Source: a virus (Duplodnaviria > Caudoviricetes). Taken from it: 64,000 nucleotides of DNA. The DNA lies in the IMG/VR virus record IMGVR_UViG_3300033074_001484, positions 32,001 to 96,000 of that record; one strand, given 5' to 3'. Below, piece by piece: positions 12,571-45,617 of the stretch (positions are counted from its first letter, which is position 1; the number at the start of each line of letters is the position of its first letter). The notes beneath the pieces are model-generated. The model ran no database searches and was not told the DNA's origin. It worked only from the letters and a program-made list of their open reading frames with translations. Made by a program: the position numbers and the translations under genes.

Positions 12571-12986
12571 AGAGGTTGAGCGGTCAGCATCAGTCACATT
12601 ACAGACTTCATATGACAAAGGTATGTGCATGGGGTTGACATGTGCAATACTTTTGACACATATTTTTTTAATGTATAATTGAAAAGTAGTTATAGCATTG
12701 ATATTCAATTGATTGTTAGACATTATACTGTAACCCTAAAAGATGTTCACGCTCCACAACCCGTGTGATTCGCTTCCCATTTTTAGTCCCTATGGCCCGA
12801 AAGCATAATGTTGACTTCCCTTTCACTAAAGTTTGAAATAATGTTTTGCCCCTGTTTATAGTGAAGCCAATATAATTTGGTGGAAAGTCCTCCTGACGTT
12901 CAAAGAACTTGGTGGAAGGTATCCACTCAACAAGCGTCATAGTCATGTGTTGGTCGGTTTTCTCACTATCTAACTATTTATGTGAA

Positions 12987-14177
12987 CTACCCATTTGCTA
13001 AAGACAAATGGGCTTCGGGCTTCACGGACGACTGCTGATTGCTCAGTCTAACATCATCTCCACCCGTGTAATCGCCAGTTCCTGACGATATTGTTTTTAA
13101 TCCTTCTTTCAGAATGTTCTTTGCAGCATTTAAATCACGGTCTAAAACGTGTCCGTTTTTGCAAGTCCATTCTCTTATTGAAAGATTTAAGTCTTGATTT
13201 ATCCAACCACACTCACAACAGGTTTTACTTGATGGGTAAAAGCGATTGATTTTTACAACTTGTTTATTGTTCCAATCCGCTTTGTACTCTAAAAACCTAA
13301 CAAACGTACCCCAACTTGCATCTGCTATATGCTTTGATAGATTACTATTACTCATCATTCCTTTAACATTAAGGTCTTCCAAAGCAATTATGTCATAGTC
13401 AGAAACAAGTTGGTGTGATACCTTGTGCAATACATCTTGTCTTGTGTTGGATATTTTCTCGTGTATCTTGGCAACCTTTCGTTTTTGTCTTTCAAACGAA
13501 CTACTACCTTTTTGTTTACGAGAAAGGTGTTTTTGTGCTTTCGCTAAATCTTTTTCATATTTCTTGGTATATCGGTTATTCTTGAATTTTATTCCATCAG
13601 AAGTAATCGCAAAATCTTTCAATCCTAAATCTACACCACAAACAGCACCAGTCTTTTCTTTTGGTTGGTATTGTTCTTCGGTTAAAATTGATACATAATA
13701 TCTTCCAGTTGGTGTTTTGGAGAAAGTCATTTTACCAACTTCACCCTTTACTTCACGGTGAACAATGCACTTAATTCCTTCTTTGAATTTAGGTACGTGA
13801 ATCTTACCATTAATCAGCTTCGTGTGTTGTGGCACAGTAAAACTATTCTTTCGTTTCCTTGACTTAAATCTTGGGAACTTAGCGTTACCACGAAAGAAAT
13901 TAAGGTATGCGGTATCTAATGACCTCAAAGCAAACTGCAAGGTTTGACTATTTACTTCTTTGAGCCAAACAGTTTCTTCTTGCTTTTTTAATTCGGTTAA
14001 GGTCTTTGCTTGTGCGTAGTAGTTATCAGACTTTTTGTTCGCCTGATATTGTTCTTTACGCTCATTCAAAAAGTGATTATACACGAACCTAACACACCCA
14101 AAATGCTTATCCAACAACACTTTTTGCCCCTGTGTTGGTCTTAATTCAAAGCGATATGTCCTATGTATTGTTTTCAC
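12987..14177 (-). CDS. tnpB: RNA-guided endonuclease TnpB
   Basis: HTH N-terminus, RuvC GVDLG / IALEDL / DRDLNAA, Zn ribbon SKTCCECG. Confidence 0.95.
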   Translation of the reverse strand: MKTIHRTYRFELRPTQGQKVLLDKHFGCVRFVYNHFLNERKEQYQANKKSDNYYAQAKTLTELKKQEETVWLKEVNSQTLQFALRSLDTAYLNFFRGNAKFPRFKSRKRKNSFTVPQHTKLINGKIHVPKFKEGIKCIVHREVKGEVGKMTFSKTPTGRYYVSILTEEQYQPKEKTGAVCGVDLGLKDFAITSDGIKFKNNRYTKKYEKDLAKAQKHLSRKQKGSSSFERQKRKVAKIHEKISNTRQDVLHKVSHQLVSDYDIIALEDLNVKGMMSNSNLSKHIADASWGTFVRFLEYKADWNNKQVVKINRFYPSSKTCCECGWINQDLNLSIREWTCKNGHVLDRDLNAAKNILKEGLKTISSGTGDYTGGDDVRLSNQQSSVKPEAHLSLANG

Positions 14178-14268
14178 GTTTACAAATATACTCCTTTTAT
14201 ACTAAATACGCAAGTTTTTGTAAAAGTTCCGTTTTAGGGTAAAAACTTTCACAAAAACTTGCTTTATT

Positions 14269-14682
14269 ATGTCTAAAAAATCACAGTACATTTCTACAAA
14301 TCGTTCAAAGCACTACCTAAAGTGTCATCTTATCTTTGTTTGCAAGTACCGTAAAAAGTTGCTTGTTGGTCAGTTAAAAGAAGATATGCGTTCTATTCTT
14401 TTAAATATCACTTCTAATTCAGATTTTGAAATAGAGGTATTTGAAAGTGACCTTGACCATATTCATTTTCTTATTCGTTACATCCCTCGTTTATCCATCA
14501 CATCTATCGTTCGCAAGTTAAAGCAAGAGTCCACTTACCACATTTGGCACTCTCCACACCGTTCATTCCTATTCAAGCATTTTTGGCGTGAGCGTACTTT
14601 TTGGTCAGATGGTTACTTCGTTTGCTCTATTGGTGAGGCTTCACCAGATACTATTCGTCAATACATCCTCACACAGGGTTAG
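14269..14682 (+). CDS. tnpA: IS200/IS605 HUH (Y1) transposase
   Basis: HLIFVCKYR, DHIHFL (HUH), FWSDGYF, YILTQ. Confidence 0.95.
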   Translation: MSKKSQYISTNRSKHYLKCHLIFVCKYRKKLLVGQLKEDMRSILLNITSNSDFEIEVFESDLDHIHFLIRYIPRLSITSIVRKLKQESTYHIWHSPHRSFLFKHFWRERTFWSDGYFVCSIGEASPDTIRQYILTQG

Positions 14683-14733
14683 CGTTTGTCGCTTACATCC
14701 CATTGGCTGAAGACCAATGGGTTTTACGCTCCG

Positions 14734-14925
14734 TTATATAAAAGTCAATCTACTGGGCTGCACGTATACTGTATGCAGGTATGGTATTCTGAAATGTATT
14801 CCCGGTTTTAATAGTTTTACATCCTTACCCAACCATATTCTCATGCCTTGTTGCCACGGCAGTACTATTACCCACCACTTCAGCATGCTGGATAATTGTT
14901 CCCATATCTGTTTGAATATTTCCAT
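14734..14925 (-). pseudogene. Truncated SPFH/band-7 domain gene at the IS end
   Basis: VIVLPWQQGMRIWLGK...LKPGIHFRIPY is an SPFH N-terminus; ends at the IS boundary. Confidence 0.65.
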
Positions 14926-29727: not shown

Positions 29728-29886
29728 TGACGAGGGAAGGACTCGAACCTCCAAACACACATTAAAATAATACCACTAAAATACCGAAGGATACGTTAGA
29801 AGTGTATTGGTTTTTTTAGTTGGTTACAATGTGTTGTGGGGACACTTATTTTCAATGGGCCGCTTTACCAATTAGCGTACCTCGTC
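29728..29886 (-). ncRNA. tRNA-like RNA with about 85 extra nt in the anticodon/variable region
   Basis: Perfect acceptor GACGAGG/CCTCGTC, D and T arms; long internal hairpin. Confidence 0.7.
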
Positions 29887-43964: not shown

Positions 43965-44069
43965 TAGTCAGGGCTGGATTTGAACCAGCAATGGACAGTT
44001 CGGCGCCTGTCCTCGAAAACCACGGTCTGTCTCCGTTTATCTAGCGTCTACCAATTCCGCCACCTGACT
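43965..44069 (-). ncRNA. tRNA-like RNA with non-canonical anticodon arm
   Basis: AGTCAGG/CCTGACT acceptor, Leu-like D loop, T arm; irregular middle. Confidence 0.7.
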
Positions 44070-44830: not shown

Positions 44831-45012
44831 AAACAAATTTCAAAGAACAAAACCTCTGATTAAACCACCCCGCTTCGGTCTATCCACACGGTGGTTTTTT
44901 TATTCTTAGGCACGGAAAAAAATTGCAGAACTGTCGTGTTTGCCTTTTAAATTCAGCCGGTTATACCCTGACAGTTGGGATGCGGTTAAACCCCGCTCTT
45001 TGCCACTCTGCA

Positions 45013-45276
45013 GTGAACTACCCATTTGCTAAAGACAAATGGGCTTCGGGCTTCACGGACGACTGCTGATTGCTCAGTCTAACATCATCTCCACCCGTGT
45101 AATCGCCAGTTCCTGACGATATTGTTTTTAATCCTTCTTTCAGAATGTTCTTTGCAGCATTTAAATCACGGTCTAAAACGTGTCCGTTTTTGCAAGTCCA
45201 TTCTCTTATTGAAAGATTTAAGTCTTGATTTATCCAACCACACTCACAACAGGTTTTACTTGATGGGTAAAAGCAT
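45013..45276 (-). mobile_element. Internally deleted IS605 copy (omegaRNA/right end only)
   Basis: 45013-45274 identical to 12982-13243 (262 bp). Confidence 0.9.
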
Positions 45277-45283
45277 ATAAATC

Positions 45284-45312
45284 ACTATATAAGATATCAA
45301 CGTTATTGTCAA
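45284..45312 (-). promoter_or_regulatory. sigma70-like promoter
   Basis: TTGACA-17 nt-TATAGT on the - strand. Confidence 0.55.
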
Positions 45313-45542
45313 TGGTATAGTGTCTTAATTCAAGTTTTTTTGCATATCTTTTGCTATCTGGGCATACTCATACGCCTCATCTTCAACACAGGCTTTAATA
45401 AATGCCTGTAAATCTTCATCTGTTGCATCTGTTAAAAACTGTACGACCTCATCTTTATTTTTGAATAATACGGAAGGTCTACAAAGCTCTTCATACCGTT
45501 CAATCAATTGTGATAACGTCATTTTTTTCATATATCTATTTT

Positions 45543-45617
45543 TGGTACCCTTGGAAGGACTCGAACCCTCATCTTCGGAGCCGAAATCCGGCATTCTATC
45601 CATTGAACTACAAAGGC
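45543..45617 (-). tRNA. tRNA-Arg(TCG)
   Basis: Loop TTTCGGC; CCA encoded. Confidence 0.85.

Follow-up and report, generated by a model that had tools for sequence, protein, structure and literature searches.

A truncated IS605-family copy in a large phage genome retains a predicted omegaRNA scaffold beside a new would-be guide

Can a gene-less fragment of a transposon, stranded next to tRNA genes in a phage genome, still serve the nuclease of the element from which it came? This question is raised by a locus in the DNA analysed here (64,000 nt, positions 32,001-96,000 of IMGVR_UViG_3300033074_001484; hereafter the window), which belongs to a phage genome of roughly 180 kb and repeats the final part of an IS605-family element before it continues into a different flank. 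TnpB is described as processing its own mRNA into omegaRNA (PMC10278001), and omegaRNAs that stand alone are functional in trans when the effector is compatible, their biological role being stated as unknown (PMC10691335). An initial annotation had seen in the locus - which we call the stump - a stand-alone omegaRNA copy with its own promoter that supplies the distant TnpB with a guide against related phages.

Results

The parent element is complete (1,756 nt; 12982..14737, minus strand) and carries two subterminal hairpins that resemble each other, one per end: the right end (RE) hairpin at 12990-13012 and the LE hairpin at 14699-14721, with the TAM at 14738-14742. Its tnpB (12987..14177, minus strand) encodes a 396 aa protein with the RuvC residues D183, E267 and D348, a zinc ribbon and Pfam domains OrfB_IS605, TNB and HTH, which can be aligned with ISDra2 TnpB from end to end (E about 2e-78). 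Divergent from it lies tnpA (14269..14682, plus strand) for a Y1 (HUH) transposase of 137 aa (Pfam Y1_Tnp, E 5e-31) with HIH and RQY motifs. With a Y1 TnpA, an intact TnpB, end hairpins and a fixed pentanucleotide without target duplication, the element falls into the IS605 group of the IS200/IS605 family and, judged by its RuvC D/E/D residues and Pfam domains, it does provide an intact cognate nuclease gene 32 kb from the stump, as the initial annotation had assumed.

The family to which the element belongs is represented by 58 loci in viral contigs and by another 38 in genomes of prokaryotes, with protein identities of up to 92%; among the genomes with names, Bacteroidota prevail (Sphingobacterium, Algoriphagus, Flavobacteriales, Saprospiraceae, Chitinophagaceae). 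TTTAT (GTTAT once) stands directly before LE in more than 25 independent full insertions, while RE ends in GGGTAGTTCAC every time and then runs into unrelated sequence. Taken together, the constant pentanucleotide before LE and the unrelated RE flanks identify TTTAT as the target (TAM) and the RE flank as the guide position. The previous assignment of TTTAT as target and of AT as the first two bases of the IS is thus borne out by these insertions and by the LE of the phage's own copy. Three Sphingobacterium species (L075, L081/L151, L176, L197) have the IS at one and the same RE flank (AACCTTTTCTGTAAGACC...) with internal deletions that differ; this may reflect either an old orthologous insertion that decays separately in each or several homing events into the same site.

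Within the window, a profile search (nhmmer) detects just two family copies, the second of which is the stump, a 5'-truncated IS copy at 45013..45274 (minus strand). Positions 12982-13243 and 45013-45274 form an exact direct repeat of 262 nt (100% identity), which equals the tnpB 3' end and RE of the element at 12982-14737 and comprises tnpB codons 312-396, the stop codon and RE (hairpin at 45021-45043, minus strand), the whole omegaRNA region included. There is no effector or transposase gene inside the stump and no ORF of at least 30 aa is left in its TnpB frame. The LE hairpin is absent too, the sole LE remnant being an AT (45275..45276, minus strand) that equals the first two bases of the phage's own LE (ATAACGG...), so the stump does not keep both ends as elements mobilised in trans do. 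On the minus strand, the order of motifs is TTGACA (45312-45307), a 17-nt spacer, TATAGT (45289-45284), GA, TTTAT (45277..45281; the insertion target or TAM, which adjoins LE in the more than 25 family insertions above), AT and the fragment itself (45274-45013), after which the DNA reads TGCAGAGTGGCAAAGAGCGG (45012-44993). The would-be guide of 16 nt, TGCAGAGTGGCAAAGA (44997..45012, minus strand; 20 nt if extended to 44993), is hence the DNA flanking the stump RE; it occurs once in the window and differs from the RE flank of the full copy (ATAAATAGTTAG...). As for allele joints, the stump (mini) allele has TTTATAT joined to GCTTTTACC, an IS-free allele would have TATAGTGATTTAT joined to TGCAGAGTGG and a full-IS allele would have TTTAT joined to ATAACGGAGCG, with the flank from 45282 onwards. 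Up to this point, the initial annotation proves accurate: the repeat, which is far beyond chance, is exact and correct in coordinates and sequences, and TTTAT plus AT, the upstream TTGACA-17-TATAGT and the differing flank were all found where they had been placed.

A repeat of 262 nt exceeds the usual assembly k-mers and might have been mis-joined, in which case no stand-alone copy would exist. Against this, a JGI contig (L097, 36.7 kb) that spans the stump locus has 100% identity along 20.4 kb, two runs yielded Logan contigs (L098, L099) that stop at 45245, 30 nt into the repeat from the right joint, and another Logan contig (L102) begins at 45042, 30 nt into it from the left joint. Ends of this kind at a repeat are the usual break of k-mer assemblers and both joints are confirmed in independent data, the inner ~200 nt being without independent confirmation in the Logan contigs. 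Each junction sequence is found in separate runs and by separate assemblers, the deletion joint (TTTATAT plus tnpB-internal sequence) cannot be derived from the full copy and, with direct repeats, joining the flanks the other way round would leave two molecules in place of one genome. Since the junctions recur in independent assemblies, the artefact that the initial annotation had named as fatal to its reading does not apply, and we hold a mis-join to be extremely improbable. That contigs run through the TTTAT joint unbroken suggests that neither the IS-free nor the full-IS allele is abundant in those samples.

How the stump arose may be read from its left border. LE usually starts with AAAACGG in the family and with ATAACGG in this phage's own copy, so the AT that separates TTTAT from the fragment agrees with the resident copy; with the TTTAT target, this makes the locus a second insertion minus 1,492 nt. 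The deletion joint has no microhomology. The simplest and, in our view, best explanation for such a sequence is insertion followed by internal deletion: a second copy would have inserted 3' of TTTAT at 45277-45281, and a blunt deletion of IS nt 3-1494 (LE hairpin, tnpA and tnpB codons 1-311) would then have left AT plus the last 262 nt. The internal deletion postulated in the initial annotation is therefore supported by the TTTAT target, the AT of the phage's own LE and the exactness of the copy. With the LE hairpin lost, excision of the stump by TnpA would be impossible and, going by its sequence, the stump is a recent, real and immobile leftover of the phage's own IS605-family element.

As far as the origin alone is concerned, the stump could instead have been born truncated from one aberrant TnpA event, be it an incomplete excision or the insertion of an incomplete circle. 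Such an event would be in line with relics (L132, L114/L126, L131 and possibly L075) that adjoin TTTAT with 0-2 nt of LE and whose breakpoint often coincides with the TnpA cleavage site. The stump, however, keeps two LE bases (AT), the CAATC before its breakpoint in the full copy is unlike TTTAT or the RE cleavage motif, and the AT microhomology in other TTTAT-abutting relics is equally explained by ordinary end joining. We consider a truncated birth rather improbable and keep to insertion with later deletion. Left breakpoints at the TnpA cleavage site, often with AT microhomology, are a recurrent observation in their own right (L132, L114/L126, L131, L075 and 45275-45281 of the window), which may point to truncation linked to TnpA or to the repair of a nick made by it.

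Relics of the family are widespread. An RE-anchored scan retrieved PATE-like elements, internal deletions with partial LE and LE-less stumps. The LE-less stumps and other RE-keeping relics, whose breakpoints range between IS nt ~1023 and ~1716, turn up frequently in both viral and bacterial contigs; in many cases they break inside the scaffold and are too short to hold one. With breakpoints so varied and many of them within the scaffold, its retention is not a family rule and may, in the case of our stump, be luck. An apparent tendency of relics always to spare the scaffold was discarded as detection bias, one of the search patterns lying upstream of the covarying helices in the 3' coding part of tnpB. 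Among gene-less derivatives, PATE-like elements of about 275 nt (L111, L115, L125, L133, L136; all IMG/VR) consist of ~95 nt of LE and the last 187 nt; their copies have differing flanks, each adjoining TTTAT, and look like mobile guide carriers in viral contigs. A second gene-less type (L107, L124) has kept 54 nt of LE and 107 nt of RE. A stump similar to ours occurs in a 421 kb jumbo-phage contig (IMGVR_UViG_3300037067_004891; L055 / G001) together with about six full-length TnpB homologues that are 35-60% identical to the window TnpB; it lies 60 nt from an unrelated opposite-strand tnpB and has a TATATTTG box before it. Four other viral contig fragments contain a stump and no TnpB gene.

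Does the stump hold all that an omegaRNA scaffold requires? An alignment of 47 family members (A1) yields 29 consensus pairs, 11 of them with compensatory changes, and the covarying helices all lie within about the last 110 nt. Fragment plus guide fold better than all 200 shuffles (z = -3.2), and Rfam has no family that matches the stump omegaRNA at gathering or E-value threshold. ISDra2 needs no more scaffold than the 116 nt adjoining the guide to be active, its 5' region being dispensable and guide positions 1-12 essential (PMC10097598). By homology to this 116-nt scaffold, the likely functional part of the stump is its last ~116 nt (45013..45128, minus strand), where all helices with compensatory changes are found, and the 262-nt fragment would thus exceed a complete scaffold by about 150 nt. 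We conclude that the stump holds a complete, covariation-supported scaffold that is predicted to be sequence-competent. A compatible effector is present in the same genome, namely the cognate tnpB whose RNA region equals the stump fragment. The notion that omegaRNA derives from the tnpB 3' end and RE, with the flank as guide, is backed by both the covariation and the RE-flank pattern. A structured or tRNA-like RNA abutting the guide was considered and dropped, as the 113-nt flank after RE is no stabler than its shuffles (z = 0.36).

Less can be said in favour of the promoter proposed for the stump. The putative sigma-70-like match TTGACA-17-TATAGT (45284..45312, minus strand) has 11/12 consensus bases and a 17-nt spacer, within the 16-18 nt criterion for sigma-70 spacing, and it is the sole match in 64 kb; shuffled sequences contain 0.99 matches on average, with at least one in 63 of 100 shuffles. 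Neither TTGACA (3/97 upstream of minus-strand ORFs vs 1/57 in the coding control) nor TATAAT (3/97 vs 2/57) is enriched in front of genes. TAnnTTTG is enriched (10/97 vs 2/57), and a strong Shine-Dalgarno motif precedes the start of just 3/97 minus-strand ORFs. The primary sigma factor of Bacteroidota recognises -33/-7 elements and not the E. coli consensus. TAnnTTTG boxes also occur upstream of tnpB, here and, about 30 nt upstream, in many relatives; the window tnpB starts 5 nt past TATATTTG (14178-14200). In the 60 nt upstream of the stump, TAnnTTTG is absent. The closest matches in cultured phages are from a Parabacteroides phage for TnpB (63.6%) and from Bacteroides phages for ThyA (~38%). 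TAnnTTTG boxes and scarce Shine-Dalgarno motifs indicate Bacteroidota, and such a host is the one we favour for this phage on the strength of these signals. The promoter claimed initially thus comes down to a single sigma-70-like match at chance frequency in a phage whose own signals, like those of the IS, are of Bacteroidota type.

This does not imply that the stump is silent. Its neighbours, namely tRNA-Arg (45543-45617), a 68-codon ORF that ends at 45325 and, downstream, a tRNA array, all lie on the same strand, and between the upstream genes and the stump no minus-strand terminator was found. Given this same-strand cluster of tRNAs and small ORFs and the lack of an upstream terminator, the stump would most likely be transcribed by read-through, or possibly from TTGACA/TATAGT, and we regard its transcription as likely. 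Two further features of the window are worth recording. A candidate for a phage-specific promoter, ATATTTAT(T/A), is found 15-60 nt upstream of several minus-strand starts (56654, 53310, 23800, 6736, 3099, 1201); because the motif includes TTTAT, IS insertions could be drawn to these places. Over-long tRNA-like stretches at 43965-44069 and 29728-29886 score just above the Rfam threshold (36.6 and 35.2 bits) and are not called by ARAGORN.

What might the guide be aimed at? INPHARED contains no near-identical phage DNA; exact searches gave no match for the right and left flanks of the stump in viral contigs, none for the guide flank and the right flank plus TAM in metagenome contigs and none for TAM plus 16-nt guide in one genome per prokaryote species. 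The IS-free allele (TTTAT-TGCAGAG...) that related phages were expected to carry is hence absent from the viral, metagenome and species-representative genome collections searched. Relatives traced through neighbouring proteins are the same phage (L097-L103), one 98% relative (L100), the contig of which ends 109 nt short of the stump locus, and phages at about 51% identity, which have no non-coding homology; close relatives of this phage are nearly absent from databases. TAM plus a 12-nt seed gives 17 viral matches, 12 of which fall into one conserved terminase large-subunit gene from 12 related contigs (L216-L220, L222-L228; e.g. L220:5470-7077) and mismatch at three of the four guide positions 13-16. 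With 6 independent contexts vs an estimated 5-8 expected for a 17-mer, we take the seed matches as chance.

Discussion

Our findings may be accommodated by a scenario in which a read-through or TTGACA/TATAGT transcript carries the cognate scaffold plus the new flank, and TnpB from the intact copy would process and load the stump RNA and then cleave TTTAT-TGCAGAGTGGCAAAGA. In the phage's own genome, TAM and guide match are 264 nt apart, so self-cutting would not occur; and as the stump is not excisable, its target could never arise in this genome, which would direct any activity at other genomes only. Cuttable would be solely the IS-free allele in a relative infecting the same cell; with this genome as repair template, the stump would then be copied together with linked markers, an outcome that amounts to the usual TnpB homing, here in trans. 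Provided that both partners are expressed, we think it highly likely that TnpB loads the stump RNA; any homing or exclusion effect, by comparison, is doubtful. To our minds, the locus is best viewed - and we lean towards this - as the immobile stump of a second insertion, a sequence-competent by-product of IS decay and not a designed phage weapon.

A more sceptical view would see a neutral leftover of IS decay, not usefully expressed or not loaded and bound to erode, with its promoter-like motif a coincidence or an older phage signal. That RE-keeping relics are common and many of them too short for a scaffold speaks for such inertness, as do the four other viral relic fragments without a TnpB gene and the promoter pattern, which is expected about once per window by chance. 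In addition, stump and parent copy are identical, which leaves no time for selection and no readable signature of it. The stump does, however, sit in a same-strand cluster of genes and tRNAs without upstream terminator, and it matches the cognate RNA perfectly in a genome whose nuclease gene is intact. Total silence and non-loading would therefore need special pleading, and we judge an inert relic to be somewhat unlikely.

At the other extreme, the stump might be domesticated, i.e. a promoter-driven, immobile omegaRNA kept as a dedicated trans guide that excludes or converts co-infecting relatives with an uninterrupted allele of the tRNA region, much like an RNA-guided analogue of T4 SegB. Its position in a tRNA cluster would suit this role, the 11/12 promoter match puts the expected start 2-4 nt before the fragment, the stump allele appears fixed in three datasets (contigs cross the TTTAT junction unbranched) and non-restorative homing into co-infecting phages has been listed as a possibility in a review (PMC13565253). 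The type of promoter is nevertheless at odds with the Bacteroidota-like signals of phage and IS and is not enriched, searches of viral, metagenome and genome collections did not turn up the target allele, and conservation was not seen in relatives, which are nearly absent from databases. Domestication thus strikes us as very unlikely; were it true, the stump would represent a natural step from a transposon-bound guide toward a host-kept, CRISPR-like separate guide gene. Under the reading we lean towards, that of a competent by-product, expression and loading would give one TnpB two guides, one of them from a locus no longer able to transpose, and a clean natural case for asking whether TnpB guides act between phage genomes (homing or exclusion) or serve transposon retention only. 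As it stands, the locus is a well-documented instance in which a guide module that is still usable outlasts the decay of an IS605 copy.

How does the stump compare with known systems? With the stand-alone omegaRNAs known from OMEGA systems (Altae-Tran et al. 2021, summarised in PMC10691335) it shares the lack of an effector or transposase gene and the presence of an effector-bearing element in the same genome. According to that source, the published examples have evidently been mobilised, whereas the stump is LE-less and not movable by TnpA; it also differs from those described there in that it resides in the genome of a large phage and exactly duplicates the RNA of the resident element. Since trans-acting stand-alone omegaRNAs have already been published, the stump introduces no new principle. 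A PATE with an encoded omegaRNA depends on TnpB supplied in trans (Meers et al., bioRxiv 10.1101/2023.03.14.532601), and the stump is, like such elements, gene-less with an omegaRNA for a TnpB encoded elsewhere; PATEs, though, keep both end hairpins and stay mobile while the stump keeps 2 nt of LE.

The closest structural counterpart is the ISDra2 TnpB-omegaRNA complex (PDB 8H1J, 8BF8; PMC10097598), in which the RNA overlaps the tnpB 3' end and RE in the same way. The stump helices in the last ~110 nt resemble its 116-nt scaffold, and a GAAC hairpin loop ~100 nt upstream could pair with GUUC near the 3' end in a putative ISDra2-like pseudoknot. The two systems differ in TAM (TTTAT here vs TTGAT in ISDra2), and the IS605-like layout with tnpA divergent from tnpB applies to our element. 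T4 SegB, a free-standing homing endonuclease cited in PMC13565253, has in common with the stump a location in a tRNA region and the proposed cutting of alleles with spread of markers. Specificity of the stump would, unlike that of SegB, reside in an RNA guide and a nuclease 32 kb away, so the likeness would be one of proposed function only.

Finally, the stump and its parent copy place perfect 262-bp direct repeats 32 kb apart, and the segment between them includes most of the tRNA array. Recombination between the two repeats could delete or circularise the intervening 32 kb.
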